DNA of 64,000 nucleotides from Candidatus Omnitrophota bacterium. GTDB lineage: Bacteria; Omnitrophota; Gorgyraeia; Gorgyraeales; Gorgyraeaceae. Numbering within the stretch: position 1 is the first letter of the stretch; every line of letters starts with the position of its first letter. The notes beneath the pieces were generated by a model that saw only the letters and a program-made list of their open reading frames with translations, had not been told where the DNA came from and searched no databases. The position numbers were made by a program, and so were the translations under genes. Below, one piece after another: positions 25,445-53,857 of this stretch. The stretch spans positions 26,920 to 90,919 of the forward strand of contig JAPLMD010000069.1 in the NCBI GenBank assembly GCA_026387235.1, read 5' to 3'.

Positions 25445-27181
25445 ATGCGATGGAGTAAATATTTTATCCCAACTTTAAAAGAGGTCCCAAGCGAGGCTGA
25501 GGCAGTCAGCCACAGGCTTATGATACGCGCAGGCCTTGTCAGAAAACTTGTCTCAGGCGCTTATACCTACCTTCCTTTAGGCCTAAGGATTTTGAAAAAA
25601 GTTCAAAATATAATCCGCGAAGAAATGGATAGCTCAGGAGCTATTGAACTTTTTATGCCTTCCTTGCAGCCTGTTGAATTATGGCACGAATCAGGCAGGT
25701 TTAAAGATTTGGGTGAAGACCTGATTACCTTTAAAGATAGACATAATAGGGTTATAGTTTTTGGGCCTACTCATGAAGAAGTTATAACAGACCTTGTTAA
25801 AAACCATGTAAATTCATATAAACAGCTGCCCATCACTTTTTATCAAATCCAGACTAAGTTCAGAGACGAAGTCCGCCCTAGGTTTGGGGTTATAAGAAGC
25901 AGAGAATTCATAATGAAAGATGCTTATAGCTTTGACAGGGATTGGCAAGGTTTGGACGAAAGCTATAAGAAGATGTATGAGGCATATAAGAGGATTTTTG
26001 AAAGATGCGGGTTAAAGGCAATTGCTGTAGAAGCAGATTCGGGTATTATGGGCGGAGACGTATCTCATGAATTCATGGTGCTTAGCGATAGCGGAGAGGA
26101 TTTATTAGCGCATTGCGCTTCGTGCGGATATGCAGCAAGTCTTGCTATTGCAGAATGTAAAGAAAGAACACCAGAACGCCAGAGCACCCCCGTACCACAA
26201 GGGTACGGGGCAGGCAGGACATTGGAAAAGATTAAAGAGGTAGATACGCCTGGGGTGACGACGATAGAAAAGGTTGGGCAAATGCTGAAGGTTAAGCCGG
26301 AAGAGATGGTAAAGACCCTTATTTACGCGGCAGATGAAAAGCCTGTAGCTGTTTTAATAAGAGGCGACCACGATGCAAACGATGCAAAGATAAAGAAATA
26401 TTTAAAATGCGCCAAGCTTGAGATGGCTAATGAAGATGTTATAAAGAAAGCAACCGGCGGCCCAATGGGATTTTCAGGCCCTGTGAGATTGAAAGATGCT
26501 AGGGTTATAGCAGATAATTCTATTAATGGCATGATTAATTTTGTCACAGGAGCAAATAAAAAAGATAAGCATTATATAAATACAAATATAGACAGGGATT
26601 TTAAGATTAGCGAATGGGCTGATTTAAGAATGATTACAGAAAGAGATTTATGTCCTAAGTGTAATAAAGATATAAAGATAGAGCATGCAATAGAAATGGG
26701 GCATGTGTTTAAATTAGGTCTTAAGTATTCAAAGGCAATGAAAGCTGAATTCCTGGATGAAGACGGCAAGTTGAAACCTGTGGTAATGGGTTGTTACGGC
26801 ATAGGCGTAAATAGGATCATAGCTACCGCAGTAGAGCTTCATAATGATGAAAAAGGCATAATATGGCCGCTCGCAATAGCGCCTTTTCAGGTTATAATAA
26901 TACCATTAAATTATAAAAATGGCAGCATTAAAGCTACAGCTGATTATGTTTATAATGAGTTAAAAGAGGCGGCTATAGACGTATTATTGGATGACAGGGA
27001 TGAAAGCGCTGGCATTAAGTTTAATGATGCTGAATTAATAGGGATACCTGTTGAAATAATAATAGGAGAAAAGAGCCTGAAAAAAGGTGTTTTTGAACTT
27101 AAAATTAGAGAGGCAAACAAGATAATAGAGATTAAAAAAGAAGAAATAAAGCATAAAATCTTATCATTAATAGCCCTGTAG
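25445..27181 (+). CDS. proS: Prolyl-tRNA synthetase (bacterial type with editing domain)
   Basis: Class II aaRS motifs. 578 aa. N-terminus MRWSKYFIPTLKE…HRLMIRAG. Confidence 0.9.
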   Translation: MRWSKYFIPTLKEVPSEAEAVSHRLMIRAGLVRKLVSGAYTYLPLGLRILKKVQNIIREEMDSSGAIELFMPSLQPVELWHESGRFKDLGEDLITFKDRHNRVIVFGPTHEEVITDLVKNHVNSYKQLPITFYQIQTKFRDEVRPRFGVIRSREFIMKDAYSFDRDWQGLDESYKKMYEAYKRIFERCGLKAIAVEADSGIMGGDVSHEFMVLSDSGEDLLAHCASCGYAASLAIAECKERTPERQSTPVPQGYGAGRTLEKIKEVDTPGVTTIEKVGQMLKVKPEEMVKTLIYAADEKPVAVLIRGDHDANDAKIKKYLKCAKLEMANEDVIKKATGGPMGFSGPVRLKDARVIADNSINGMINFVTGANKKDKHYINTNIDRDFKISEWADLRMITERDLCPKCNKDIKIEHAIEMGHVFKLGLKYSKAMKAEFLDEDGKLKPVVMGCYGIGVNRIIATAVELHNDEKGIIWPLAIAPFQVIIIPLNYKNGSIKATADYVYNELKEAAIDVLLDDRDESAGIKFNDAELIGIPVEIIIGEKSLKKGVFELKIREANKIIEIKKEEIKHKILSLIAL

Positions 27182-27197
27182 AAAATTGGATTTTTAT

Positions 27198-27226
27198 TTG
27201 ACACGAAAGCGTTTACGTGTTATACT
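27198..27226 (+). promoter_or_regulatory. Consensus-like sigma70 promoter TTGACA-17 nt-TATACT upstream of giant gene 1
   Basis: TTGACA at 27198-27203, 17-nt spacer, TATACT at 27221-27226. About 70 nt upstream of the ATG at 27296. A near-identical element is found before gene 3. Confidence 0.6.
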
Positions 27227-27295
27227 TTATAGTAGAGTTTTAAAAGCATTTAAAAATACATATAATATTTCCATGAACCTAAAGAGAGGGGTTAT

Positions 27296-30200
27296 ATGTC
27301 TGTGAAGCCATTATCTAGAGCAATCTCTATAACCGTGCTCATTACATTTCTTTTCACAAATATCCCATATGCTTCATCTGCCCCCAATTCTTTATTTAAG
27401 AACAAGAAAATAGACTATCAAAAGCTTTCCGATCAGAATCAAGATATTGTCCAGAAAAAGAAAGATATCCTATCTGGCGAAGATTCAAAACAAACCCAAT
27501 CACAGCAAAAACAAGCCCAGAAGATTCTGTCCAGCCATCTATCTGATATATCGCAGATTCATATTCCATCTGAGATAGGAAGGATAGTAGAGGTGCACCA
27601 GGGCACTGGGGCACCAGAGCATCAGGATAAGCTTATAGTGCACATACAAGACCTGCATACAAATCCTGAGGCAGAATATAACCTGGCAAAGATATTAGAG
27701 GTTCTATTAAATGACTATAAGATGGGTCTTGTATGTTCGGAGGGCGCTGATGGAGTTGTTGATACATCTAGTGTATCCACTTTTCCTGATTCCCAGGTAA
27801 GAGAAAAGATCTCCAAGATCTTTGTGAACGCAGGAGAACTCACAGGCGAGGAATACCTATCTATCACCAAATATCCTGATCTTCCCATCTGGGGCATTGA
27901 GAGTAAAGACATCTATTTCAGAAATATCATTGACTTCAATAAGATAATGAAATTCAACCCTGGGTCCCAAATCTTTATCTCCCAGGCTAAAAAAGCCCTG
28001 GAAGAGCTGAAAGCCAGAATCTATACAAAAGAACTGATTGAGCTGGACCAGAAAGAGGCTGATTACAAAGCCCAGAAGATAGAATCTCCTGAATATGTGA
28101 AATATCTTCTCGACTCGGCTGCTTCACAGCCTCGCTCGAAGAATATTCTCTCCAACTACAAAAATATCGGCCTATTGACTGAAACAATAGATGCGGAGAA
28201 AAAGATAGACCAGCTCAAGATAATGAACGAATCCCAAAAACTACTTTTAAACCTCCAGTCTTCCCTTAATGCCAAATCCCTCAACTCTGACATGGATTCT
28301 TTAATGGCAAAATCAAGCCTTTTCAAAGACCAGAAGATTTCACCATTCTCATTCTACAGCTACCTAAAAGACCTTGCAAATAAACACCTGAAGGACGAGT
28401 TTGGCGCAAAATACCCTAATCTGAATGGCTTTGTAGATTACCTCACTAAACTTAATTCTCTTGATTCCACAAAGCTCTTTATTGAATTAGAAGACCTGAA
28501 TTTTGAGATAAAACAAGCCCTTTCCAGAACAGATGAGCAAAAAACCCTTATCAAGGCCCTCAGAAACATAAGCTTCCTTGAAGGCTTTTTTAACCTCAAG
28601 GTCTCCAATGAAGAATTAGACTATTACCTTAATAATAAGGACTTCCATAAAGTAGCATTCTTTGAATCCTTCTTGAAACCAGCTATCAAAAAATACAATA
28701 TCAGCACCTTTATAGACTATAACCCCGATCTTATAGATTCCCATTTAACAGAGCTTGAGGATTTCTACAAGGTTGTAAAAGACCGCGATATCGCAATGGT
28801 AAATAACTCTATCTCTGAGATAGAGAAGCGCAACTCTAAAGTCAGCGCTCTTATTGCAGGAGGGTTTCATACAAAAGGCATCACTAAGCTCCTAAAAGAA
28901 AAAGGCTATTCCTATATAGTCATCTCCCCGTATTCAAAGACAGGTATAAATGAAGAGAACTATCACTATTTATTATCAGGCCAGCGTAAACCCTTAATGG
29001 AATTGGCAGAAAAGCTTAATGCTGCTGCTCTTCGCGTTATTCTTGGATTTGTAAAAGATCCGACCTTTGAAACAGAGCTTAAAAAAACTTTAGCTGCTGC
29101 TGGCATAATAGATAACCAGTTATATTCCGGTGCTAAACCAAGGATGTTATCTTTATTTGCGCTTGGGGCTGCTAAAACTCTATATCTGCGCGATAAAGCA
29201 AACTTTGATTTATCTGCGCTTCCAGCCTATTTTACATCTTCATTTTATACTGAATTAAATAAGCTTGGCTTAGATGTAGAGATAAGAGAGAGCAAATCAG
29301 GCATCCATGTGAAATGCGGGGATAATTACTTTGGCATAAATAAGGAAGATGGGGGGATAATAAAGTCTAATGCCAGCATATTTACCAGTGTATCTGATAA
29401 GAACAGAGTAATGCTGGCAAAAATAAGCGAAGAAGAGACGCTAAAAATTCCAGGGCCTCGTATTTCTGAAGGAATAACTCAGGCAGTTGCAGAAAAATGG
29501 AAAGCTAGAGCAGATATGGTTCCGGATTCGCAAATCAAAGTGATGAGAATAAAAGATTTGGAGATAGAAACTGTATTAATAACAGCTGATTCTGGAGATA
29601 TGCCTGAGGGGATACTGGCTTGGCGTTTGCGCGATAGTAAAAATAGGCTAGTGATAATTACGGAAAGGGAAGTAAAACTTGGAGACAGCTTTTCAGAAGA
29701 ACTTCTGTTTCACGAGCAATTTGAAGAGAATCTAAAACAAGAGCTTAATTATATTACTGACCGTGATCCAGAAAGGCTTAGACATACTAGGCATGCTATT
29801 GCCAGCGCAGTGGAATCTATACTATTTAGTGAGGGCGGGACCAGGCTTACGCCTTTTCATGAATATGCAATAGGCCATAGGATGAGCCTGTTGCACCTTA
29901 AAAGATTGGTCGATGAATATCAAGAACTAGGATTTTATTACAATATGATAGCAGATTTTTTTACTAGGAAAGGAATAGAATATCAAGATAAGGGCATAAC
30001 CATAGAAGCTTTACAGGCCTATGAAAGAAAATTTATAGCAAGAATAAAAGAAGAAATAAGGCACAGGACTACAGAGTCAAGAGCTCGGGCCGGCGCAAGG
30101 AGAAAGGGCAAAGCCGCTGAGGTGCCTAAGATGTATTTAGTGGGGAAAGTAGTTGTCCCTCAAGATGATGCCAGGACCCAGCAGGTGATTGAGCAGGCAA

Positions 30201-33200
30201 GGGGTCAGGAAAGGCTGGTAAGAATAGATGTATCTAAACAAGAGAGAATCACTCCGCAAGGCAGGTTTGCAGATATTTTGCGAGACGCAATCTCGTATTA
30301 TGAAAGACGGGGCGCATCTGATGAAGTAGCTGATTTGCAACAGACTGAATTTTACCTAGTTAGGCCGCAAGAGGATGATCCTAATCGCACTCTTCCAGGA
30401 TTTATTTGGTACGATTCAGATGGACATTACCTTATTGCCAAAGCAATGGAACCTAGACAAGCTTATTTTGGTTATGAGGCTATAGATATCTTAAGAGAAA
30501 AAAATCCAAGGATAGATTTTATTGCCAACATGCTTCTCCAGGTAGCACGATATGCTAAAGATCCTTATGGTAAGTGGGACCCATCTATACTTAACCATAT
30601 TTTGGCAGAGTCAGGAAACTATTTATTGGAAGATGCTCGTTTAATTAAAGAAGTGAGATTTATAATTAACCGCCTTTTTAAAGAAGAAACCTCGCCTGAA
30701 GAGAATGACCGGCTTCAGGGGCTCCTTATAGATATAAAACAACGCAAACCAGTTTTGTTCTATGTAGGGTTAGCTAATTTAGGAAGAACATACCTTCAGG
30801 GGATTTCCCCTAATAGATATCCCTGCGTCACTGCTGCAAATTTGTGTCTTGCCAGGAATTATGCTTTTATGGACCAGCATTTACAAAAGGATGCTTATGT
30901 CTCAGAAATAGACAGGACTATCACGGTTTTTAGAGATGTTTTTAATCCTACCTTAACTAGAGCGATTCCCTGGATGCTTCAGGTGTTAAAGGAGCAGCAG
31001 AATCCAGCTAATCCCAATTTAGTTAAGGGAGAAATACTTATAAAGAAAGGCGATAACTTTTTAGATCTTACTTGCGGGACAGGCATTTTTGGTTTGTTTG
31101 CAGCTTTAAACGGTGCAGAGAGTGTTTTAAGCAGCGATATTAATCCAAGTGCTGTGGCTTGCGCGAACTTTAATGCAAAAAAATTAGGAGTAGCTAAGAA
31201 AATGCAGGCAATACAAAGCGACCTTTTTAATGGTATTCCTAAAGATAGAAAATTTAACATTATCAGTTTTACCCCGCCATTCTTAGATGAGCCGCAATCT
31301 CCAGGCGTGTGGTTAGAAAAAGCTGTATATGACCCTGGATTCAGCCTTTTAACCCGTTTTTTAAATAGGGTTGGTAATTATCTAACTGATGATGGAAAGA
31401 TATTGTTTATAGGCACAGATAAGAGTCAGGGCCCAGAAGGGAAAAACAGCACAGGCCTCATGTTAGATTTAGCAAGACGGAAAGGATTTATCAGTACTAT
31501 TATACGTTCTCAAGAGTTTCATGGAGAAACCTACTCAGTTTATGAACTGACCAGAAGATCTGCTTTAGTGTCCGATAGCGAGATAGATAATCTTGTGGCA
31601 ACATCCCTAAGCTCTGACAAGGAATCAGCTAATTTTGCCATTAGAGAGTTAATTGAACAGGCTCGTTCTGCCTTTGATAGCAATCCTGAATTTTATCAAA
31701 GGCTATTCTTGCATCTCGTCCAGATTTATATTGAAGAATCCTATAACGGTTATGTATCGGAAAGGGTGATAGCTAAACGTAATGCAGGGGAGAGACCAGA
31801 CTTTTATGAAGAACAAAAGGCAGCAACCTATAATGCATCGGCAGCGCGAACAATAAACTGGTTTATTAAAGACTATTGTAGAGATGTTTTGAAATTAGAT
31901 CCTGAAGGCCAAATTGTTGAAGACTATTTTAGTTGCCTTCATATGTTGCCTATTATGAATAGAGATATGAAGAGAAGATTTAGCGAGCGTGATGGCATAG
32001 AGATAGATTCTACTATGATTGTTAATGGAAACCCAGAAGAAGTGCAGATGACCAAGGACTTTTATCGCGCGAGGTTGGGGCGTATATATGATTCTTTGAA
32101 AGTGATTGGCATAAGGGACGATCTATGGCTTGGCAATATAGTAGGTATGATGCCTTTATTTGAGGACTATTTGGCCCAGCCATCAAGAGACCAGGAAGCC
32201 AAGGGTAATAAAAAGGTTATATTGCATGTCTTGGCAGTTAATGGCGGCGCAGGAGCCAGAAATATTCTTCTTACAGCATCTTCTGATGGAAAAGGTGAAA
32301 TCATTCTTGACAATGGCCGCACAATGATGGAACAGGGCATTGAACAGGTAAAAGGCATGGTTCAGGGGTTAGTAGAAAGAAACATATATGGCGAATTTTT
32401 TATTGTTATTCCCTGCGATAACATGATACTCCCAGCCATGTATACAGCTGATGCTTACAGATCAGATAGAGGGTTTTATCTCTATGCAAGGAAGACTGAG
32501 GTTTTAAGGGCATCATTGAATGAACTTAAACATTGGGGGCCGCCGTTTGGCCAGATGTTTGCAAAAAGGGAAACGGGTATCGTCAAAGGTTTTGAAGAAA
32601 AACCAAACATATGGAAATTACTAAACAGAGTCATGATCAATGCTATTGAAGAAAGCAATGAAGAAACTTGCGGAAAAAGCATTTCGGAATTTTTATACAA
32701 CTTAGATACCAGAAGGAACAGGTATTTAGATGACTTGAAACAAAAATCCGGGGATTACGCCTTATACCTTATCGCCCTTCCTATGATTGTTCAGGAGGAG
32801 GTATGGAATTATGTCTATGAAAACGGCGAGGTGGAACCTGAAATCAGGAAGATTATCCCTACTTTTGATGAGTGGAAAAGGTTATATAGCGAAGCTAATA
32901 AACATAAGTCTCGAGTAGAAGGATTGATAAACAAAGTTTTAGATGAAGGAGGCACTGTTTCTTTTACAAATACTTTCTATTTTCTTTTATCCAGGCCTGT
33001 AGCAGAAAAGATTTATACTCTATTTTCACAGCCTACTGAAAGAGAGGACAGCGGTTCTTTCTGGGCAAGAAAGCTTCCCAAAGGCCAGACTCCAAAAATG
33101 GTAGCCGCACTTGACTGGGCAGGCTTAATCCTTACACCCATGACTGTAACCCAGGAAACATGGATGGAAGACTATGAAAAAAGAGGCGCTATGTATTTGG

Positions 33201-36166
33201 CAGAGCAGCAGGTGACTGATTTTATAAGTCAGGCTAGCTCCTTAAAAGAAGCCTATTGTCAAAAATTTAGTATAGCTTCCGAAGCTTATGAAGGCCAAGT
33301 AAATGCTTATCAAGAAAAGGCTGCTAAGGAAGGCATAGTTGAGACAGCTTTTCCTGTTCAGGATACTTATCAGAAAACTTTGAAAGCCTTTTTAGAGAAG
33401 GCACTTAAAAAAGATTTAATCAATGCTTTTGCCGCAGATATTAGATCAGCAATGATACAGGATAGTACTGTGCGAGCCAATGTTCTGGAAAGCGCTGAGA
33501 AAGTCACAACATATACTCACTATGACTGGAATAGAATCTGGGAAATGGCTCTGGACATTGACCTGGCAGCCGGCGGTTTAACATGTGTTAACTTTGGCCC
33601 GATCTGGTCTGATGTTGGTACAATTAAAGAAGCCAAGAGGCTGGCAGATTACGAGGTTTCAAAGGATAATCTTTTAGAGAGGGCTTTATATAGAGGTCTG
33701 TTTGAGCTGCCTATTACCCATGATAAAATATACAATGTTGATTCTAATAAGGGTAAGATTGTATATTCTAGCCCAAACGAATTCTTGCGTTATCGCAGTG
33801 TTATTGATGTTCCAGAAGGCGTAACTTTAATAATAGGAAATAGAGTAAGGATTGCTAATAGTTTTATTCAAATAATAGCCAAAAAAGGGGAAACAGTAAT
33901 AATACCTGATGATACTGCAATAGTAGCTAGTTATTTGCGCTGTTCAATAGGAAAGGAAGGCAAGCCAGGGTCATTTGTGTATAGACACGAGCAGAGAAGA
34001 GGTACTTTAGAATTTTCAGGAGATTTCATTACAACGATCCGGACCATTGAAGGGCCAGTGAGAGGAACCCATCCCATAGATGCAACTACTATTGCATGGA
34101 ACGACGTTCCAGTGGCAGGAACTTATACTCCCAGGATGTTGACTAGGCCATTTCCGGGTATGCCTGGACCCTTGCGAGACAAGCCTAAAGTTACTTCTGT
34201 TGTTGTTAGGGAAAAAACATATAGTTTTTATAGAAGTCGTCTCGATCGCATTATAACTACGATTTGGGAGAGAGCACAGTCACAAGAGGTCAGATTTATC
34301 CCTGAAAAGGCCATTGGAAAAATTATAGACATGGTTCAGAATGATAGAGCAAAAAGTGAAGGCAGAGGCTATATTTCAAGTTTCCTTTTTATAGGAGGCA
34401 ATGTCGGAGGTTTAGAGCCTCAAGTTTATACTCAGACATTAGAGAGATTAAGTAAGCATTATTTATATTATACTACTCCAGAAAGAAGGATTGGAGAAGA
34501 AGGGGTTTTCGGAAGGCGAGGCATGTCAGGTTTACAACATTCGTTAAGATCAATGCAACTGAATGATAAATATACTACTGAATTTCTGAATAGAGCCAAA
34601 GACCTGATTAAAGAAAGAAACATGAGAGGGCTTAAAGCATGGATAGAAGAAGCTAAACAGATAGATCCAGAAGAAGCAGGGATTAAGACTTTACGTTGTG
34701 CATTGGACTATTTAAGTAAAGAAGGGAGCCAGGTTGTACTTTACAGGATAGTTAGCAGGGCAGAAATAATAAAAGAGTATATTAGAGGCGAACATGGCGA
34801 AGAATTGGATATAGCTGACGCAGAACGAAAAGCCCGTGATTTATTAAGTGGGAAAGATCCTTATAAAGTTGATGAGCAGGATTTCTTAAGATTAATAGTA
34901 AGAGGGGAGACAGATCCAAATGACGCACATTCAGGCAGCCTGTCACATGACTTGCTTAGACACTATGAAGAAGGAGGTATTTTAAAAGGAGCTCTTGTAG
35001 AGAACGTTGCTAAATATAATATACCCAAAAAGGCCTTAATTAGTATTATGTGCGTCTTTCGCTGCCCTAGCAGGTCGGAGCTATTCTCTGATTTAGCTCA
35101 GCTGCCTCAAGAAGATATAGGCCTTTTAGAAAGTAAACTTGAGGATGCGATGTTTACGCATGACGAGATGTTATCAAGAAAGGTGAAAGAACTCCTTCAT
35201 AAGCATGGTAAGCCAATTACTGTAACCATAGATGGCTTAGCCATGACAGGCAAGAGCACGATGAGTAAAGATATAAGCAATGTCTTAGGATTTACACGTA
35301 TACCTGGAGGAGAGATAAGCAGGCTGATAACAGCTGGCCTGCTTGGAACAGGTATAAACCGTAATACTATAGAATCTACAGAGCCTGATACGATAGTTGC
35401 TGCAGTGCAGCAAACCTTGGAGGACGTGAAATATAAATTAATAGGCGGCGCTGTAACATTGTGCTATAAAGACACAGATTTGCTTAATAATCAAGATCTT
35501 TTAAGTCAACTCCGCAGCCAAGATATCAATGACAATATATCTTCACTTGTTATGAACAGTAACATTGTCAGAAATCTGCTTATAATGCATATCATGGAAT
35601 TGATAAAACAAGTCCATGATCTTGGTTTCAGCGTGGTGATAGATGGAAGATTAGCTGGAACTGAAATAGAACGGCAAGCAGATGTAAAGATTTGTTTGGA
35701 CACAAGCTATGAAGCCATGGCCAGAGCAGATGCCCGTAGAATTATTGACCAAAAAGGTAGTATGACTGCTTACATAGAGAGAACCGGCAATACTATGGCA
35801 GAGTATAGGCAAATTATAAGAAGTGGAGGGTTGCCAGGTGTGGAAAGAGCGATAATGCAGACTTATTATCAGCCAGCAGAAGAAAGAGATGCGAGTGATG
35901 TTTTAGATGTGGCTGAGTATCTATCCAGCAGAGAACAAGATGATGAGATTACTGTTATTTCATCAAGGGGCGTAGAAGATAGATTATCTATTAAGGATGT
36001 AAGAGAAACGATATTTGCAGAGATTATTAAAAAAATTAGCAATGCAGAAGATGCTGTAACTGTACTGAATTTAAGAGAGGGAACCCAGCCAGGAGTACCT
36101 TCAGATGCTGGTGTGTATCTCGAAACAGCTGTTCAAGGACTTAGAACCACAGGTCAAGGCCTATAA
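27296..36166 (+). CDS. Giant secreted multidomain protein (2956 aa). Signal peptide, paralogous N-domain, class-I SAM amino-methyltransferase domain, possible NTP-transferase-like stretch, shared C-module, cytidylate-kinase-like P-loop domain.
   Basis: Sec-type signal peptide MSVKPLSRAISITVLITFLFTNIPYASSA|P. N-domain (~27383-29020) ~80-85% identical to the gene 3 N-domain. MTase motif I DLTCGTG (31063-31083) and motif IV FTPPF (31268-31282). LAVNGGAGARN…FIVIPCDNM (32215-32430) weakly nucleotidyltransferase-like. Cmk-like ITVTIDGLAMTGKST (P-loop) and VVIDGRLAGTE…KICLDTSYEAMARADARR (35213-35745). Confidence 0.85.
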   Translation: MSVKPLSRAISITVLITFLFTNIPYASSAPNSLFKNKKIDYQKLSDQNQDIVQKKKDILSGEDSKQTQSQQKQAQKILSSHLSDISQIHIPSEIGRIVEVHQGTGAPEHQDKLIVHIQDLHTNPEAEYNLAKILEVLLNDYKMGLVCSEGADGVVDTSSVSTFPDSQVREKISKIFVNAGELTGEEYLSITKYPDLPIWGIESKDIYFRNIIDFNKIMKFNPGSQIFISQAKKALEELKARIYTKELIELDQKEADYKAQKIESPEYVKYLLDSAASQPRSKNILSNYKNIGLLTETIDAEKKIDQLKIMNESQKLLLNLQSSLNAKSLNSDMDSLMAKSSLFKDQKISPFSFYSYLKDLANKHLKDEFGAKYPNLNGFVDYLTKLNSLDSTKLFIELEDLNFEIKQALSRTDEQKTLIKALRNISFLEGFFNLKVSNEELDYYLNNKDFHKVAFFESFLKPAIKKYNISTFIDYNPDLIDSHLTELEDFYKVVKDRDIAMVNNSISEIEKRNSKVSALIAGGFHTKGITKLLKEKGYSYIVISPYSKTGINEENYHYLLSGQRKPLMELAEKLNAAALRVILGFVKDPTFETELKKTLAAAGIIDNQLYSGAKPRMLSLFALGAAKTLYLRDKANFDLSALPAYFTSSFYTELNKLGLDVEIRESKSGIHVKCGDNYFGINKEDGGIIKSNASIFTSVSDKNRVMLAKISEEETLKIPGPRISEGITQAVAEKWKARADMVPDSQIKVMRIKDLEIETVLITADSGDMPEGILAWRLRDSKNRLVIITEREVKLGDSFSEELLFHEQFEENLKQELNYITDRDPERLRHTRHAIASAVESILFSEGGTRLTPFHEYAIGHRMSLLHLKRLVDEYQELGFYYNMIADFFTRKGIEYQDKGITIEALQAYERKFIARIKEEIRHRTTESRARAGARRKGKAAEVPKMYLVGKVVVPQDDARTQQVIEQARGQERLVRIDVSKQERITPQGRFADILRDAISYYERRGASDEVADLQQTEFYLVRPQEDDPNRTLPGFIWYDSDGHYLIAKAMEPRQAYFGYEAIDILREKNPRIDFIANMLLQVARYAKDPYGKWDPSILNHILAESGNYLLEDARLIKEVRFIINRLFKEETSPEENDRLQGLLIDIKQRKPVLFYVGLANLGRTYLQGISPNRYPCVTAANLCLARNYAFMDQHLQKDAYVSEIDRTITVFRDVFNPTLTRAIPWMLQVLKEQQNPANPNLVKGEILIKKGDNFLDLTCGTGIFGLFAALNGAESVLSSDINPSAVACANFNAKKLGVAKKMQAIQSDLFNGIPKDRKFNIISFTPPFLDEPQSPGVWLEKAVYDPGFSLLTRFLNRVGNYLTDDGKILFIGTDKSQGPEGKNSTGLMLDLARRKGFISTIIRSQEFHGETYSVYELTRRSALVSDSEIDNLVATSLSSDKESANFAIRELIEQARSAFDSNPEFYQRLFLHLVQIYIEESYNGYVSERVIAKRNAGERPDFYEEQKAATYNASAARTINWFIKDYCRDVLKLDPEGQIVEDYFSCLHMLPIMNRDMKRRFSERDGIEIDSTMIVNGNPEEVQMTKDFYRARLGRIYDSLKVIGIRDDLWLGNIVGMMPLFEDYLAQPSRDQEAKGNKKVILHVLAVNGGAGARNILLTASSDGKGEIILDNGRTMMEQGIEQVKGMVQGLVERNIYGEFFIVIPCDNMILPAMYTADAYRSDRGFYLYARKTEVLRASLNELKHWGPPFGQMFAKRETGIVKGFEEKPNIWKLLNRVMINAIEESNEETCGKSISEFLYNLDTRRNRYLDDLKQKSGDYALYLIALPMIVQEEVWNYVYENGEVEPEIRKIIPTFDEWKRLYSEANKHKSRVEGLINKVLDEGGTVSFTNTFYFLLSRPVAEKIYTLFSQPTEREDSGSFWARKLPKGQTPKMVAALDWAGLILTPMTVTQETWMEDYEKRGAMYLAEQQVTDFISQASSLKEAYCQKFSIASEAYEGQVNAYQEKAAKEGIVETAFPVQDTYQKTLKAFLEKALKKDLINAFAADIRSAMIQDSTVRANVLESAEKVTTYTHYDWNRIWEMALDIDLAAGGLTCVNFGPIWSDVGTIKEAKRLADYEVSKDNLLERALYRGLFELPITHDKIYNVDSNKGKIVYSSPNEFLRYRSVIDVPEGVTLIIGNRVRIANSFIQIIAKKGETVIIPDDTAIVASYLRCSIGKEGKPGSFVYRHEQRRGTLEFSGDFITTIRTIEGPVRGTHPIDATTIAWNDVPVAGTYTPRMLTRPFPGMPGPLRDKPKVTSVVVREKTYSFYRSRLDRIITTIWERAQSQEVRFIPEKAIGKIIDMVQNDRAKSEGRGYISSFLFIGGNVGGLEPQVYTQTLERLSKHYLYYTTPERRIGEEGVFGRRGMSGLQHSLRSMQLNDKYTTEFLNRAKDLIKERNMRGLKAWIEEAKQIDPEEAGIKTLRCALDYLSKEGSQVVLYRIVSRAEIIKEYIRGEHGEELDIADAERKARDLLSGKDPYKVDEQDFLRLIVRGETDPNDAHSGSLSHDLLRHYEEGGILKGALVENVAKYNIPKKALISIMCVFRCPSRSELFSDLAQLPQEDIGLLESKLEDAMFTHDEMLSRKVKELLHKHGKPITVTIDGLAMTGKSTMSKDISNVLGFTRIPGGEISRLITAGLLGTGINRNTIESTEPDTIVAAVQQTLEDVKYKLIGGAVTLCYKDTDLLNNQDLLSQLRSQDINDNISSLVMNSNIVRNLLIMHIMELIKQVHDLGFSVVIDGRLAGTEIERQADVKICLDTSYEAMARADARRIIDQKGSMTAYIERTGNTMAEYRQIIRSGGLPGVERAIMQTYYQPAEERDASDVLDVAEYLSSREQDDEITVISSRGVEDRLSIKDVRETIFAEIIKKISNAEDAVTVLNLREGTQPGVPSDAGVYLETAVQGLRTTGQGL

Positions 36167-36169
36167 GGA

Positions 36170-36341
36170 ATAATCTGGCCTCTGGTTATAGCGCTTTTTC
36201 AGGTTTTAATTATGCCTAAGTGATAGGGGATAAAGGCCTTAAAAGAGGCGTAGTCGAGATAAAGATAAGAGAAACCGGAGAAATCCTGGAATCCAAAAAA
36301 GAAGAAATAAAAGGCAAAATCCTATCATTATTAGCTACGTA
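36170..36341 (+). pseudogene. Degraded duplicate of the proS 3' end (two fragments with an internal deletion)
   Basis: Translates to IWPLVIALFQVLIMPK* … VVEIKIRETGEILESKKEEIKGKILSLLAT*. This parallels the proS C-terminus IWPLAIAPFQVIIIPL … VFELKIREANKIIEIKKEEIKHKILSLIAL*. Roughly 70% nt identity over both fragments. Confidence 0.75.
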
Positions 36342-36396
36342 GTACACAATAAAAATATAGAATTTTTGTTTGACAGAAAAGCGGAAGAGGGGAGCC

Positions 36397-38130
36397 ATGT
36401 TTTTTAAATCATTTAAGAAAATCACTCCAATTATTGCCCTGGGCATATTTATAGCTGTTAATACTATACATGCGGCGTCTGATTCCAAATCCATATTCAA
36501 AAATAAAAAAATTGACTACCAAAAACTGAGCACTGAAGAAGAAGAAGCCCTTCGAAGAAAAAAAGCTATGCGCAGCGAAGAGGCTGTCAATAAACCTAAA
36601 GTCCAGAAAAAGGAAACCCAGAAGATAGTTTTTTCGCGTCTTTCTGATATATCGTTCATCCACATCCCCCAGGAAACAGGGAAAATAGCGGAAATATACC
36701 AGAGCCCTAACCAGGATAATTCCAGGCTCGTAGTGCATATTCAGGACTTACATACTAATCCGGAAGCAACGCTTAACCTGGCCAGGATACTGGAAATATT
36801 GTTTAAAGACTATAATCTGGGGTTAGTGTGTTCAGAAGGGGCAGAGGGCCCGGTTGATACTTCCAGCGTTGCCAGTTTTCCTGACCCAGAAGTCAGGGAA
36901 AAAGTAGCCAAGCTTTTTGTTGATTCAGGAGAGCTCACAGGAGAGGAGTATTTATCCATAACAAAATATCCGGATCTACCCATATGGGGCATTGAAAATA
37001 AAGATATCTATTTTAAAAATATCGAGGAATTTAACAGCATAATGAAGTTTAATCATGATTCCCAGGCTTTTATCTCCCAGACTAAAAAGGCGTTAGAAGA
37101 ATTAAAACCAAAAATTTATTCGAAAGAGATGCTGGAGATAGACCAGAAAGAAGACGATTACGAACAGCAGACAATAGAAACAACCGATTACTTAAAGTAC
37201 CTGTCTTTATATCTTCGGAAACTGAACATCCCGGCAGACAGCTATAAAAATATAACGCTATTAAATGAGACTATAATACAGGAATCCAGGATTGACCAGC
37301 AAAAGGTCAAGCAGGAATCCCAGGACATGCTTTTGAATTTACAGTCAGCTATTGCCAAGAAGCCCAATAGCACGGATATGGATAGTTTAATGGCTAAGGC
37401 CACCCTGTTTAAGGACCAGAAAATATCGCCTTTTTCATTCTATAATTATCTAAAAGAGCTGGCAGGTAAAGAGTTAGGGGGCCAGTTGTCAAAATATCCA
37501 AATGTAATGGGCTTTGTGGATTATCTTGCAAAAGTCAATTCGCTTGATTCCGCAAAACTTTTTACGGAGATAGAGAATCTGACCTACGAAATAAAACAAA
37601 AGCTCGCTGTAAATAATGAACAGAAAGAGCTTGTCCTTGCCCTGCGCAATATAAAATTTCTTGAGACCTTTTTTAATCTTGAAATTTCCAACGAGGACCT
37701 GGAGTATTATTTAAATAACAGGGATTTTCACAAAGTAGCGTTCTTTAAGGATGTTTTAGCGGGTTTGAGGGCCAAGGCAGGGCTTTCGACCCAGGCAGAT
37801 TATATAGATTTTAATCCTGATTTAATAGATTCTCACCTAGGGGAGATAGAAGATTTCTATGAAACCGCAAAATCCAGGGATCTGGCTATGTTTAATAACG
37901 CTGTCTCAGAAATAGAAAAGCGCAACGTAAGAGTGGCTGCTCTGGTAACAGGCGGATTTCATACAAAAGGCCTGACCAGGCTTTTAAAGGATAAAGGCTA
38001 TTCCTATATAGTTATATCTCCGTATGCAAAAACCGGCATAGACGAAGAGAATTATCGTTTTCTGTTATCAGGTAAGCGCAAGCCAATAGAAGAAATAATA
38101 AAACAATTTGAGGAAACTAAGCAAAAATAA
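36397..38130 (+). CDS. Secreted stand-alone copy of the ~560-aa N-domain (paralog of genes 1 and 3 N-termini)
   Basis: Signal peptide MFFKSFKKITPIIALGIFIAVNTIHAAS|D followed by the SIFKNKKIDYQKLS motif. Colinear with the gene 1 and gene 3 N-domains throughout (VHIQDLHTNPEA…CSEGAEG…GGFHTKG…LLSGKRKP). The ORF-track start at 36370 is a TTG that forms part of a TTGACA box; the ATG at 36397 is preferred. Confidence 0.8.
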   Translation: MFFKSFKKITPIIALGIFIAVNTIHAASDSKSIFKNKKIDYQKLSTEEEEALRRKKAMRSEEAVNKPKVQKKETQKIVFSRLSDISFIHIPQETGKIAEIYQSPNQDNSRLVVHIQDLHTNPEATLNLARILEILFKDYNLGLVCSEGAEGPVDTSSVASFPDPEVREKVAKLFVDSGELTGEEYLSITKYPDLPIWGIENKDIYFKNIEEFNSIMKFNHDSQAFISQTKKALEELKPKIYSKEMLEIDQKEDDYEQQTIETTDYLKYLSLYLRKLNIPADSYKNITLLNETIIQESRIDQQKVKQESQDMLLNLQSAIAKKPNSTDMDSLMAKATLFKDQKISPFSFYNYLKELAGKELGGQLSKYPNVMGFVDYLAKVNSLDSAKLFTEIENLTYEIKQKLAVNNEQKELVLALRNIKFLETFFNLEISNEDLEYYLNNRDFHKVAFFKDVLAGLRAKAGLSTQADYIDFNPDLIDSHLGEIEDFYETAKSRDLAMFNNAVSEIEKRNVRVAALVTGGFHTKGLTRLLKDKGYSYIVISPYAKTGIDEENYRFLLSGKRKPIEEIIKQFEETKQK

Positions 38131-38166
38131 AGGATAGGGGATGAAGGAAAACGCCCAATTTTTTAT

Positions 38167-38195
38167 TTGACAAGAAAACGGTTACATGGTATACT
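38167..38195 (+). promoter_or_regulatory. Duplicated sigma70-like promoter TTGACA-17-TATACT upstream of gene 3
   Basis: ttttttatttgacaagaaaacggttacatggtatacttttatatag is near-identical to tttttatttgacacgaaagcgtttacgtgttatactttatagtag upstream of gene 1. Confidence 0.6.
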
Positions 38196-38240
38196 TTTAT
38201 ATAGATTTTAAAAGTATTTATATAAAAAGGAGAATAAGAT

Positions 38241-41200
38241 ATGACTTTTAATACTATGAAGAAGGTTGCTTCTATAGTTACATTTATTAGTTTTATAGCC
38301 ACTAATAGCATATATGCCGCGCCTGAGTCAAAGTCTGTATTCAAGAACAAGAAGGTGGACTATCAGAAGATTAATGACCAGAATAATGGCGTTATTCAGA
38401 GGAAAAAGGCCATTCTTAACGGAGAAGACGCAAACCAGGTTGAGTCCCAGCAAAAAGAGGCTCAGAAGATACTCTCATCCCATCTTTCTGATATATCACT
38501 TATCCATATTCCTGCAGAGTTGGGAAGAATTACCGAAGTCTACCAGAACCCAGATGCTGAAAACTCCAGGCTAATTGTCCATATCCAGGATCTTCATACG
38601 AACCCTGAGGCAGAGTATAACCTTGCCAAGATACTTGAGCTTTTATTGAATGATTATAAAATGGGCCTGGTGTGCTCAGAAGGTGCTGATGGCGCAGTGG
38701 ATACTTCAAGTATTTCAAGTTTCCCGGATTATGCAACAAGGGAAAAGGTCTCAAAGATATTTGTCAATGCAGGCGAGCTTACAGGAGAGGAATACCTCTC
38801 AATAACAAAATACCCTGCTCTACCTATCTGGGGAATTGAAAATAAGGAAATATATTTCAAAAATATAATTGATTTTAATAAGATAATGAAATTTAATCCC
38901 CAGTCACAGGTTTTTATATCACAGGCAAAAAAGGCGCTTGAAGAACTTAAAAACAAGCTTTATACAAAAGAGCTTTTGGAATTAGACCAGAAGGGATTAG
39001 ATTATAAGGCGCAGAAACTTGAGTCAGCAGATTATATAACATACCTTACAGGATATGTCCAAAAACTTAATATCCCAACGCTCAAATATGAGAATGTTTC
39101 GCTATTGAATGAAACTATTGATATGGAGAAAAGAATAGGCCAGCTGAAGATAATGAACGAATTGCAGAATCTATTACTGAATCTGCAGGCGGCGTTTTTA
39201 TCCAAATCCATGAAAGGAGAATCTGATTCTTTAAACGCCAACGCCCAGCTTTTCAAAGACCAGAAGATATCGCCGTTTTCATTTTATAGTTACCTGAAAG
39301 ACCTTGCGAATAAGCACCTTAAAGACGAATTTTCTGCAAAATATACAGCTATAAATAGCTTTGTAACCTACCTCACAAAAGTAAATTCATTAGATTCCAC
39401 AAAGCTATTCATAGAATTGGAAGACCTTAATTTTGAAATAAAAGAAGCGCTCTGTAGAACAGAGGAACAAAAAACGCTTGTGAAGGCGCTCCGCAATATA
39501 GATTTCCTTGAAGGGTTTTTTAATCTGAAGGTCTCAAATGAAGAATTAGATTATTATCTTGAAAATAAAGAATCCCATAAGGTGGCGTGGTTCAAATCTG
39601 CAATAACGGGCATAACAGGCAAAATAGGCCTAACGGGCCAAACGAACTACATAGATTATAATTCGGCTTTAATAGACCCGCATCTAACTGAACTTGAAGA
39701 ATTTTACAAGGTTGTAAAAGAGCGCGATGTGGCAATGGTGGATAATTCATTGTTTGAGATTGAGAAACGCAGATCAAAGGTAAGTGCATTAATAGCAGGC
39801 GGATTCCATACAAAAGGCATAACAAGGCTTTTAAAGGATAAGGGGTATTCTTATATAGTAGTATCTCCGTATTCAAAGACAGATATGGATGAGCAAAATT
39901 ACCATTTCTTATTGTCAGGAAAAAGAAAACCCCTTGTAGAATTATTGAAACAATTAGATTTAGGTGGAATTGTAAAAAGATACATCACTTCTACCGGCCT
40001 TCGAGTAAATATGGGTTGTGATACAGATATGGATGCGGCTTTTGGACGTCAAGTAATTCCTGAACTTGCAAAAATATGGGATTTTGAACCAGAGGATTTG
40101 CATCGATGGAATTTACCTCCAAGAGTGGTAGCTTGTTTAGTATTTCAAAGCGCAGCAGCAGGAAGAACTGACTTTAAAGGATGGCCGTCAATAGTTGGGT
40201 TAGAGCTAAATGATATAGGTGTGTTAAAGCTTACTTCTCGTGAAGGGTATATTTACTATGTTGAAGTTACCGCTGATAATAAAGTAAAAGAAGCAAAGCC
40301 AGATGCTTTTAATAATGGCACAGTAGTTGTAAATATACCATCAGCAGGCACAGGGCAAATAATCGCAAAGGAGCTACAAAAGGTAGATTTAAGTGCTGTA
40401 GAACCGGAAGCAGCCGTAGGTTCTCTTTTTAACCTTTTGGATTTACTTATACGCTTACGTGATGGTCAGGGAATCACAGAAATTTCAACTGGGAAATTAA
40501 AAACGGAGCGCACTGCAGTTGGTGTCAGAATGGTTGACAGAGAAATAAACGCAGGCCGTTTGCTCGGCATATTAGAGGACAAAGAAACATCAAGGGGAGT
40601 TGTTAAATTCACAGAGCCATTTAAAGATATTACCCGTGCAGAATTAGTAGAAATAAATACAGAAATAGCAAAAATCCTGCCTAAAGGTTTAGGCAGAGGG
40701 ACATTAGATCAGTTAGATCAAGTTAAACTAGAGCAAGTAAGAAAGATAGTAGAAACTTTTAAAAAAGTGGACGGATTACGAACACAACAGGGTAGAGAAG
40801 CGGAGTTTTTGGTTCAAAATGTGCAGAAGTTGTCAAGAGTTGATGGAGGTATAGTTGCAGGTATTGGATTACAGGATATTCATGGCCGGGTGTTTAAGCT
40901 AAATGGCCAGTTTTTTAACGATGATGGTAGCTATACCGAGGAGTTGCAGAAGTTTATGGATACTCTCTCTGATAATTCGGTCCAAGAGATGATACATGCA
41001 GGGATTATGTATTATGATATTCGCTCTAAATACTGGAAAGATAACCCTGCATTTACAGTGGCATTTGCATTTGCCTTTGCAAAGAAGTTGCAGGAAATAG
41101 AGGGCAGGCAAGATGGTATAGTGCTTCATATAGGCGTCGATGCATATCATAAGCATTTTGAAACAGCTCAGGTTTTTGCTGATGCAATATTGAGGACAGG

Positions 41201-48591: not shown

Positions 48592-48645
48592 AGGGACGGT
48601 TCTGGTGGAGCCAATAATAGAACCGTCCCTCAATTTTGGTATTTT
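48592..48645 (+). terminator. Rho-independent terminator-like hairpin after giant gene 4
   Basis: Perfect 11-bp stem AGGGACGGTTC (48592-48602) / GAACCGTCCCT (48620-48630), 17-nt loop, then CAATTTTGGTATTTT. 20 nt after the gene 4 stop; gene 5 ATG at 48646 follows immediately. Confidence 0.6.
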
Positions 48646-53254: not shown

Positions 53255-53290
53255 CGCAAGTAACCCAGAAACAATGATGGGCTTAGTATC

Positions 53291-53340
53291 AAGAAAATTC
53301 TAGAATTTTCTTGACACGCTTCCATAGGATGTAGTATATT
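53291..53340 (+). promoter_or_regulatory. Promoter for rimP-nusA-infB with an overlapping perfect 22-bp palindrome (candidate operator)
   Basis: Palindrome AAGAAAATTCTAGAATTTTCTT (53291-53312) overlaps TTGACA (53311-53316). 18-nt spacer, then TATATT (53335-53340). Confidence 0.5.
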
Positions 53341-53407
53341 ATATCTACTCTTATGAAAGGGGGTAGGTTAGTTGAAGTGGGTGCAGTATGCCCGCTTTTT
53401 TTGTTTT

Positions 53408-53857
53408 ATGGTAGATAAAATCAAGGAAATAATAGAGCCGATTTTACAAGGAGAGCAGGTTGAGCTCGTAGAGATTATTTTCAGGAAAGAAGCTGGGAGA
53501 CAGGTTTTACGGCTGTTGGTTGATAAAGATGACGGGATTCAACTTTCAGATTGCATAGAACTAAACGAGAAAATATCTTGGGTTTTAGATGCGGCAGATA
53601 TTATACAAGAAAGTTATGTTATTGAAGTGGATTCACCTGGGATTGACAGGCCGTTTAAAACAAAAAGGGATTATGAGAGGGCTATGGGGAGGTTAGTAAG
53701 GGTAACATTAAACGAAAAGATATTGGACAAAAAGGAATATATTGCTAGATTAGGAGAAGTATCTGACGCAGGCGTTAAGATAGACGTGAAGAAAAAAGGT
53801 ATTATAGAGATACCTTTTGAGAAAATCGTGCGGGCAAGAGAAGAAGTTGAATTATAA
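53408..53857 (+). CDS. rimP: Ribosome maturation factor RimP
   Basis: MVDKIKEIIEPILQGEQVELVEIIF…VDSPGIDRP aligns with the E. coli RimP N-terminus. An upstream in-frame TTG (53372), preceded by AAAGGGGG, is an alternative start. Confidence 0.85.
   Translation: MVDKIKEIIEPILQGEQVELVEIIFRKEAGRQVLRLLVDKDDGIQLSDCIELNEKISWVLDAADIIQESYVIEVDSPGIDRPFKTKRDYERAMGRLVRVTLNEKILDKKEYIARLGEVSDAGVKIDVKKKGIIEIPFEKIVRAREEVEL

Follow-up and report, generated by a model that had tools for sequence, protein, structure and literature searches.

A conserved extended −10 promoter block with an operator-like dyad ahead of giant genes in Omnitrophota

INTRODUCTION

Omnitrophota are uncultured bacteria and, to our knowledge, how their unusually large genes are expressed is not known. 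This question is raised by a stretch of 64,000 nucleotides (nt) from a Candidatus Omnitrophota bacterium (assembly GCA_026387235.1, contig JAPLMD010000069.1, positions 26,920 to 90,919 of the forward strand; the whole stretch is hereafter called the window). It holds a cluster of six genes, numbered 1 to 6 (Table 1), which encode proteins of up to 2956 amino acids. An original prediction made from the letters of this DNA pointed to a common promoter-like element, TTGACA and TATACT separated by 17 nt, ahead of genes 1 and 3. Which signals drive these genes, what might control them, and how did the cluster arise?

The answer that we favour as a whole, and consider likely, is that the elements are conserved sigma-70 extended −10 promoters, that they carry an operator-like dyad, and that the cluster was built from cassettes. 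The individual parts of this reading differ in strength and are set out below.

RESULTS

Two copies of one promoter block precede genes 1 and 3

A pattern search of the whole window found TTGACA-17-TATACT at exactly the two predicted positions, 27198-27226 and 38167-38195, and nowhere else. When spacers of 16 to 18 nt were allowed, there were two matches in the window as compared to 0.08 expected, and 0 of 100 shuffled sequences reached two. Both copies agree with the consensus at six of six positions of the −35 hexamer and five of six of the −10 hexamer, including A2 and T6 of the latter, and both have TG at −15/−14, the mark of an extended −10 element. A scan of the window for sigma-70-type promoters gave only five sites matching at 11 of 12 positions; four of these five are intergenic, while intergenic DNA makes up about 5% of the window. 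A 17-bp (base pair) spacer and TG are combined in just two of the five, the copies before genes 1 and 3. They are the best matches of the scan, and the claim that they represent the strongest promoter-like signal in the window is confirmed.

The likeness of the two copies extends beyond the hexamers. Positions 27191-27244 and 38160-38213 share a block of 54 nt with 80% identity, and blastn aligns 63 nt with 86% identity. The predicted blocks of about 45 nt thus exist, although calling them near-identical was slightly generous. Both are intergenic, in sense orientation, and lie close 5' of genes with a ribosome-binding site (GAGAGGGG for gene 1, AGGAG for gene 3), with 69 and 45 nt, respectively, between the end of the −10 hexamer and the ATG.

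Judged from sequence, both sites are very probably functional promoters. The proposed anatomy of the block is an A/T-rich upstream tract, TTGACA, a conserved 17-bp spacer with a dyad, TG-n-TATACT, and a conserved A/U-rich leader start. Through it, the housekeeping sigma factor (sigma-70 type) would transcribe genes for very large secreted multi-domain proteins. The block shares TTGACA, the 17-bp spacer, TG at −15/−14, and a TATAAT-like −10 hexamer with extended −10 (TGn) sigma-70/sigma-A promoters, and it also resembles those of model bacteria in its A/T-rich upstream tract and in the 45-70 nt from the −10 end to a start codon with a Shine-Dalgarno sequence. It differs from them in that the −10 hexamer is TATACT, a form preferred in other strong Omnitrophota promoters too. 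In contrast to ordinary sigma-70 promoters, its spacer sequence is conserved across genomes. The element is a conventional sigma-70-type promoter with a probable operator. Its novelty is that of a motif newly described in an uncultured phylum, and its kind is a known one.

The block is conserved with its gene family across Omnitrophota

Genes 1, 2, and 3 share an N-terminal module of 580 amino acids (N-module) with 61-70% amino acid identity. Two blocks at the same place before genes with a common module could simply reflect a recent duplication of genes 1 and 3 together with their upstream DNA, in which case the promoter-like hexamers need not function. This explanation can be set against a comparison of 62 loci encoding the N-module, with one genome per species. 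In most of them, TTGACA-17-TG-n-TATACT is found directly 5' of the gene. When 687 kb of Omnitrophota DNA was searched with a profile of the block, 28 matches emerged (E = 2e-14 to 3e-8), which comprise the two window copies and 26 copies in other loci. All 28 are in sense orientation and belong to family genes, whose start codons follow the −35 hexamer at a distance of 44-118 nt, and the search detected nothing comparable away from family genes. The combination of a 17-bp spacer and TG is present in 21 of the 26 aligned blocks.

The surroundings of the block vary more than the block itself. In 17 loci with a strong block, it is adjoined upstream by proS (prolyl-tRNA synthetase), itself preceded by ispG, which is the orthologous position. 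Loci L047 and L055 also have proS upstream, but their block is weak or variant. Elsewhere, the block follows tyrS (L024, L054), a gene for a DinG-like helicase, a gene for a U32 peptidase, another giant gene, or a transposase-like open reading frame (ORF). Because it occurs after so many different upstream genes, the block is linked to the gene family and not to one locus.

Synonymous divergence (pS) among genes 1, 2, and 3 and their orthologs is 0.68-0.84 and thus saturated, while nonsynonymous divergence (pN) is 0.15-0.25. Between genes 1 and 3, pS is 0.80, yet their blocks are 80-86% identical. Over 26 aligned sequences, the mean information content is 1.81 bits per position in the −35 hexamer, 1.47 in the spacer, and 1.56 in the −10 hexamer, as compared to 0.22 in the 40 nt upstream of the −35. 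Because synonymous sites are saturated, an unconstrained stretch of 60 nt could not have remained 80-90% identical, which indicates that the block is kept by selection and not by recent copying. A recent duplication within the genome is refuted as the cause of the likeness by the 26 further loci in other genomes, by the saturated pS, and by the lack of conservation in the flanking intergenic DNA, and we consider it extremely unlikely. The conservation of the block in other genomes provides strong evidence that the two window copies act as promoters of genes 1 and 3.

The saturation of synonymous sites further means that paralogs 1, 2, and 3 are ancient. Since pN is well below the saturated pS, all three genes, gene 2 included, are under purifying selection. 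The two window blocks are members of a promoter block that moves with the gene family through the phylum and is held in place by selection.

The spacer contains a candidate operator

The spacer of the block is about as constrained as the hexamers, which is unusual. Its consensus is aGAAArCGkTTwCrTGg, and it holds the dyad CAnGAAAnCGnTTnCnTG, with the general form CAnGAAAnC/GnTTnCnTG (the slash marks the center). Of the 26 sequences, 92-100% show complementarity at pairs 1, 3, 4, and 6 around the central CG, and pairs 8-9 (CA...TG) are complementary too. In 686 kb, the 12-mer GAAArCGkTTwC was found in 18 family promoters and in one other place, while 0.74 occurrences are expected by chance; the promoters of L019, L024, and L043 have the perfect palindrome GAAAACGTTTTC.

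The dyad has traits of LacI/GalR-type operators such as those of LipR and CcpA (catabolite-responsive element, cre), namely symmetry over about 14-18 bp, CG at the center, and AA...TT at plus/minus 3-4. It is placed between −35 and −10, a classic position for a repressor. A dimeric repressor, possibly of the LacI/GalR type, would sit on the dyad and block RNA polymerase between the two hexamers. Genes for sugar-phosphate enzymes are typical targets of the LacI family, and the Omnitrophota genes that would be controlled here encode domains resembling such enzymes. The similarity reaches single sites. The 18-mer CAAGAAAACGTTTTCATG of L024 and L043 is one base off (17 of 18 positions equal) TAAGAAAACGTTTTCATG, the minimal fragment bound in electrophoretic mobility shift assays by LipR, a LacI-family protein of Bacillus thuringiensis with the motif GAWAWCRWTWTCAT that represses gapN (PMC10989752). 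It also contains the core of AAAGAAAACGTTTTCT, a site occupied by CcpA in chromatin immunoprecipitation from Streptococcus pyogenes (PMC8359418). The binding evidence for LipR and CcpA comes from Firmicutes, not from Omnitrophota.

Several observations weigh against an operator of this type. Two of the six conserved dyad pairs, CA...TG, are expected in any TTGACA-N14-TG promoter. Positions 2 and 5 of the dyad are complementary in only 35-38% of the 26 sequences, and pair 7 is A...A, with complementarity in only 4%. The LacI/GalR operator consensus TGnAAnCGnTTnCA has an outermost T...A pair, which is absent from the dyad, and the likeness is one of sequence alone. The two sites in the window fit the LipR motif imperfectly, with agreement at 11 and 12 of 14 positions. 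The window encodes no transcription factor or other regulator, and a PROSITE helix-turn-helix pattern and tblastn detected no LacI-like ORF in 810 kb of Omnitrophota DNA, which is a small part of each genome; the LacI queries for tblastn were approximate, which makes this a weak test. Taken with the evidence above, the chances that the spacer is a regulator site are about even, whereas its assignment to a regulator of the LacI type is tentative and rather doubtful.

The conserved spacer might instead serve the intrinsic strength of a real promoter, by way of polymerase contacts or DNA shape, or it might be another DNA or RNA feature unrelated to a repressor. The CA...TG part of the dyad would then be a by-product of the −35 plus extended −10 elements, the genes would need high or steady expression over 5-9 kb, and the missing regulator in the window and in the 810 kb would fit. 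However, other strong Omnitrophota promoters have the same hexamers with different spacers, as seen before nrdJ (TTGACA-16-TGnTATACT) and rimP (TTGACA-17/18-TATATT), and a paralogous subfamily of the giant genes, termed MLxWQ after the N termini of its proteins, has TTGACA-17-TATACT promoters with unrelated spacers. Furthermore, the conserved positions of the block form a central-CG dyad that matches experimentally bound LacI-family sites. Conservation for strength is therefore, in our estimate, an unlikely explanation, and we prefer that of a site for a regulator.

The form TTGACA-17-TGnTATACT appears to be the strong-promoter form of Omnitrophota and provides a usable consensus. The family-specific spacer and leader, in turn, give a searchable signature of one putative regulon, which can be applied to complete genomes. 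If the operator is real, a sugar-responsive repressor acting on the promoter becomes a testable hypothesis.

The leaders were also examined. Hairpins predicted in the leader RNA differed from locus to locus and were weak, with energies of 0 to −10 kcal/mol, most of them above −5. Rfam gave no match at the gathering threshold in the whole window, and none on the leaders of genes 1 and 3 at E <= 1. The MLxWQ subfamily (L016, L023, L025, L028-L031, L033, L034, L039, L042, L044, L048-L050, L062) has long leaders of 180-300 nt with a conserved start of their own, TAGAGTTTATAAAAG..TTATAAG. The leaders of the two subfamilies are both A/T-rich and related in character; a common motif was rejected, as a profile of the MLxWQ leader alone reached its own members at E of about 5e-4 and the leader of gene 3 in the window at E of about 1, which is not significant. 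Before nrdJ-like genes (L029 115-275, L049 1480-1605, L062 1350-1470), TTGACA-16-TGnTATACT is preceded by the palindrome CAATATATTG, which resembles an NrdR box.

Gene 2 has lost its promoter by a single deletion

Gene 2 was predicted to have kept the −35 but lost the −10 element of its upstream copy, and this is indeed the case. TTGACA at 36370-36375 is followed by TTGACAGAAAAGCGG and then directly by AAGAGGGGAGCCATG, which contains the ribosome-binding site and the start (ATG 36397). A single clean deletion of about 56-69 nt has removed the right half of the spacer, and with it half of the dyad, the −10 hexamer, and the leader. As an alternative −10 hexamer, the position 17 nt after TTGACA was rejected, since it falls on AGCCAT. 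No promoter-like match of at least 9 of 12 positions is present on the + strand at 36167-36396.

The ribosome-binding site and the ORF of gene 2 are intact. No terminator-like structure separates genes 1 and 2, and all that lies between genes 2 and 3 is a weak A/U-rich stem. With its own promoter destroyed by the deletion, gene 2 should be read from the promoter of gene 1, and cotranscription of the two genes is the most likely arrangement. Locus L024 has a similar pair, namely a block-bearing gene followed by a family gene without a block. The truncated block is also an annotation trap: the longest ORF of gene 2 starts at the TTG of the −35 hexamer (36370), whereas the real start is ATG 36397 behind GAGGGGAG.

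Relics of the proS 3' end suggest that the cluster grew by cassettes

Between genes 1 and 2 lies a relic of proS, the gene that precedes the promoter of gene 1. It derives from the last 330 nt of proS (tblastn, 67% over 39 amino acids; nhmmer, E = 3e-22 and 4e-10). Its identity to the proS tails of L001, L002, L004, L010, and L043 is 81-84%, as compared to 71.5% to the tail of the resident proS. The resident gene is 80-85% identical to proS of the same five loci over most of its length, bar one poorly conserved 300-nt bin, but only 64-71% over the last 240 nt. This pattern suggests recombination inside proS with foreign DNA. The simplest course would be a crossover inside proS that introduced a new tail together with a promoter and gene 1, so that the old tail, its promoter, and gene 2 came to lie farther downstream; for this direction, the evidence is suggestive. 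In a neighbor-joining tree of N-modules, that of gene 2 clusters with those of the genes next to proS in L001-L006 and L010. The N-modules of genes 1 and 3 cluster with L018 and then with L015, L024, and L043.

Because synonymous sites are saturated, a neutral relic as old as the split of genes 1 and 2 would be unrecognizable. Since the relic can be recognized, the arrangement is younger than that split and would have formed when sequences that had by then diverged recombined. No proS-tail relics were detected by nhmmer in the other genomes, so this relic is specific to the present lineage. A possible third relic, heavily deleted, precedes gene 3 (GATAGGGGATGAAGG); 14 of its 15 positions match 36222-36236, for which the estimated chance expectation is about 3e-4, and it is too short to be detected by nhmmer.

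The relic upstream of gene 2 implies that the copies came in on cassettes, each made up of a proS tail, a promoter, and a gene. The cluster would thus have grown by stacking of such cassettes, with tail relics before gene 2 and probably before gene 3, and each cassette would have brought a promoter with it.

The interval between proS and rimP is variable. In L007, it contains one gene of 2020 amino acids, and in the window six genes. Locus L066 (3356-3871) has an ORF of 171 amino acids, then a gene 5 homolog and an ORF of 753 amino acids before rimP. No further gene separates the gene 5 homolog from rimP in L064, L065, L068, and L069. Long inverted repeats separate the proS stop codon from the block in L001 (5815-5915) and L002 (5840-5920); in the window, there are only 16 nt between the proS stop and the −35 hexamer, with no terminator after proS.

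Such variation, together with dyads that lack a promoter, could also indicate that the main role of the block, or of its dyad, is in recombination or at cassette junctions, where modules of giant genes are shuffled, and that the hexamers are secondary. Two promoter-less dyads are known, at the edges of gene-5-type modules. The first is the perfect palindrome GAAAACGTTTTC at the start of gene 5 in the window (48648-48659). It is expected 0.005-0.07 times in the window, but 0.74 times over all 686 kb, and it is absent from the relatives of gene 5. Its interpretation as a reversed promoter copy was rejected, since the block profile misses it on both strands at E <= 10 and about one 12-mer is expected by chance in 686 kb. 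The second emerged from a scan of 810 kb with an 18-mer matrix, in which, besides the promoters, a single site reached the maximal score (shuffled sequences gave 0-1 at a much lower threshold). This site, L070 2920-2937 (CAAGAAAGCGTTTACATG), lies inside an ORF of 1174 amino acids (codons MLKKAFTWA) at the C-terminal edge of a gene-5-like module, and neither a −35 nor a −10 hexamer surrounds it.

A role in recombination is nevertheless difficult to reconcile with the junctions of the cassettes in the window, since these fall within the proS-tail relics, on the upstream side of the block, and not in the dyad. In addition, the block is constant in its orientation and in its distance to the start codon, its hexamers, spacing, and TG are kept, and no recombinase gene is found nearby. 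We regard a recombination site as very improbable and retain the promoter with a candidate operator. The two promoter-less dyads, one at each of the two edges of this module type, may be relics of intergenic promoters, auxiliary operators, or a coincidence. A broader proposal would make the dyad the operator of one Omnitrophota-wide regulon of giant secreted proteins with sugar-phosphate enzyme-like domains, with promoter-less dyads as auxiliary or relic sites that mark cassette fusions, and would have genes grow by stacking of promoter-bearing cassettes next to proS through recombination of diverged DNA, followed by loss of the internal promoters. This proposal is speculative, and we hold it to be doubtful; if true, promoter-less dyads and proS-tail relics would provide a concrete mechanism for the growth of giant genes.

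A hairpin with homologs in relatives separates genes 4 and 5

Genes 3 and 4 overlap at 42851-42854 (ATGA), as had been noted, and the promoter of gene 3 would also serve gene 4. For gene 4, there is an alternative start at ATG 42878 behind AGGAAG. Downstream of gene 4, the terminator-like hairpin of the original prediction is present. Its 13-bp stem has eight G-C pairs and one G-U wobble, and the predicted folding energy of the 89-nt region is −24.5 kcal/mol (z = −2.9 as compared to shuffled sequences). A consensus terminator scan missed it only because of a loop limit of 8 nt. The tail, CAAUUUUGGUAUUUU, has four to five U within the first 8-10 nt. At E <= 1, Rfam gave only generic microRNA-hairpin chance matches here. 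The absence of comparable promoters before genes 4 to 6 also held, as the window scan detected no match of at least 10 of 12 positions before any of them; matches of 10 of 12 at 43364, 44686, 48998, and 51828 are inside coding sequence and have no TG.

Among 20 loci with gene 5 homologs, seven close relatives (L063-L069) show a hairpin directly 5' of this homolog, with A and U tracts on its flanks, a folding energy of −30 to −47 kcal/mol, and a large loop or a long, extended stem. Their stems differ in sequence yet share GGGAC...GUCCC ends with the window hairpin, and this compensatory conservation indicates a functional RNA structure. The hairpin of the window is thus homologous to stronger ones. 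In five of the seven (L063, L064, L065, L068, and L069), a dedicated promoter comes after the hairpin, with TTGATT or TTGCTT-17-TGaTATGCT, and then a Shine-Dalgarno sequence and the N terminus MKQKIEKEKNQID...; in L066, L067, and the window, the gene comes right after the hairpin, without room for a promoter. The predicted lack of room for a promoter in the window was nearly right, except that a relic extended −10 element, TGgTATTTT (48637-48645), survives inside the hairpin tail just before the ATG and aligns in the right register with TGaTATGCT of the relatives. As compared to these relatives, gene 5 of the window has lost its −35 and leader, its Shine-Dalgarno sequence, and about 10-12 N-terminal codons. 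In more distantly related genomes, the gene 5 module forms an in-frame fusion with domains upstream of it.

Because a dedicated promoter follows the hairpin in most relatives, the hairpin is expected to stop transcription. It would end the transcription unit of genes 3 and 4 at least partly (48592-48630). Genes 5 and 6, whose dedicated promoter is lost, would then depend on read-through of the weaker hairpin of the window or on the weak relic −10. Genes 5 and 6 overlap by 11 nt, as predicted, provided that gene 6 starts at ATG 50612. Like partial intrinsic terminators inside operons, the structure combines a G+C-rich stem with a T-rich tail and sits right behind a stop codon and ahead of the following gene, and the homologous hairpins of relatives have the flanking A and U tracts. 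It differs from them in its 13-nt loop, its interrupted U tract, and a start codon 15 nt on that has no Shine-Dalgarno sequence.

The loop, which exceeds the 3-8 nt expected of terminators, and the interrupted U tract speak against termination and leave room for another explanation, namely that the hairpin is a stem-loop for stabilization or processing of the mRNA and no effective terminator. Genes 5 and 6 would then be expressed at the levels of genes 3 and 4, or from the relic TGgTATTTT with a translation start downstream of 48646. In favor of this, L066 and L067 also have a promoter-less gene directly after the hairpin, the relic is in the right register, and ATG 48646 is not preceded by a Shine-Dalgarno sequence, while GGGGA precedes the in-frame ATG 48709. 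However, the relic lacks a −35 hexamer, and just four of the six positions of its −10 hexamer agree with the consensus. In five relatives, a long G+C-rich stem with A/U tracts is followed by a dedicated promoter, as expected of a transcription stop. We consider a nonterminating stem-loop rather improbable. Attenuation of genes 5 and 6 is plausible and, in our estimate, about as likely as not.

The giant genes encode putatively exported proteins with enzyme-like domains

The cluster lies between ...dxr-rseP-ispG-proS and rimP-nusA-infB, and the rest of the window contains housekeeping genes on the same strand. The product of gene 2 has an identical counterpart among the NCBI proteins, from a metagenome-assembled genome of Candidatus Omnitrophica, whereas an exact look-up of the proS protein gave no record. 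Genes 1-4 and 6 begin with a characteristic signal peptide, ...F.TN..YA (read by eye). The N-module has no Pfam or NCBIfam match, and no sequence match in PDB better than E = 0.04; a lead came solely from comparing folds. The C-terminal part of gene 6 is 45% identical to residues 2340-2612 of gene 1. Proteins with an export signal carry domains that resemble cytoplasmic enzymes: PGI, FBPase, PGM/PMM, HAD, cytidylate kinase, and methyltransferase. A paralog in L024 (3014-5974) has a phosphofructokinase-like stretch, seen by eye only.

The same repertoire of domains has been described for the Archaeovorin giant proteins of Omnitrophota (West-Roberts et al. 2023, bioRxiv 10.1101/2023.11.21.568195). 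Promoters are mentioned neither in that study nor in a 2026 survey of 176 complete Omnitrophota genomes (bioRxiv 10.64898/2026.06.07.730766). The window proteins share with Archaeovorins the phylum, the predicted export, and the sugar-phosphate enzyme-like domains. They differ from them in size, with 577-2956 and not tens of thousands of amino acids, and in having no Pfam match (E <= 0.01) to HEAT or glycosyltransferase domains, the commonest domains in Archaeovorins.

Table 1. Features of the giant-gene cluster and its borders (window coordinates; aa, amino acids)
Feature	Position	Strand	Remarks
proS (prolyl-tRNA synthetase)	25445..27181	+	Pfam; stop codon 16 nt before −35 of gene 1 promoter
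Gene 1 promoter block	27195..27257	+	Sequence, scan, profile match E = 4e-12
Gene 1 block, −35	27198-27203	+	
Gene 1 block, dyad	27202-27219	+	CAcGAAAGCGTTTACgTG
Gene 1 block, TG	27218-27219	+	
Gene 1 block, −10	27221-27226	+	
Gene 1 block, predicted transcription start	~27231-27234	+	Conserved leader start up to ~27257
Gene 1	27296..36166	+	2956 aa; signal peptide, N-module, methyltransferase-like, cytidylate-kinase-like
proS 3' end relic	36165..36342	+	Pieces 36165-36216 and 36217-36342; internal deletion ~153 nt; begins on gene 1 stop codon
Truncated block before gene 2	36370..36399	+	TTGACA and left spacer half (to ~36384) joined to GAGGGGAG and ATG 36397
Gene 2 (locus tag NTX47_07430)	36397..38130	+	577 aa; signal peptide, N-module only
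Possible third proS-tail relic	38133..38147	+	GATAGGGGATGAAGG; heavily deleted; 14/15 positions match 36222-36236
Gene 3 promoter block	38164..38221	+	Sequence, scan, profile match E = 2e-12
Gene 3 block, −35	38167-38172	+	
Gene 3 block, dyad	38171-38188	+	CAaGAAAACGGTTACaTG
Gene 3 block, TG	38187-38188	+	
Gene 3 block, −10	38190-38195	+	TATACT
Gene 3 block, predicted transcription start	~38201-38203	+	
Gene 3	38241..42854	+	1537 aa; N-module, weak PGM/PMM-like (phosphoglucomutase-like) domain
Gene 4	42851..48571	+	1906 aa; family signal peptide, PGI-like (glucose-6-phosphate isomerase) and FBPase-like domains
Terminator-like hairpin	48592..48645	+	Stem 13 bp, 48592-48604/48618-48630; loop 13 nt; interrupted U tail CAAUUUUGGUAUUUU, then ATG 48646
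Gene 5	48646..50622	+	658 aa; no signal peptide, no Pfam match
Perfect palindrome GAAAACGTTTTC	48648..48659	.	Core of promoter dyad; overlaps gene 5 start codon; status uncertain
Gene 6	50612..53254	+	880 aa; family signal peptide, HAD-like domain
Promoter of rimP-nusA-infB	53311..53340	+	Independent; TTGACA-18-TATATT; same promoter and leader in relatives

The rimP promoter marks the downstream end of the cluster

The independent promoter of rimP-nusA-infB marks the downstream end of the giant-gene cluster. Its −35 hexamer lies in a palindrome of 16+16 nt, GTATCAAGAAAATTCT/AGAATTTTCTTGACAC (53286-53317), and the rimP leader, CTCTTATGAAAGGGGG...GAAGTGGGTG, is conserved in relatives. Between the promoter and the conserved part of RimP, there is a terminator-like hairpin with a T run (53374-53408). 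This leader hairpin may be an attenuator of the rimP-nusA-infB operon.

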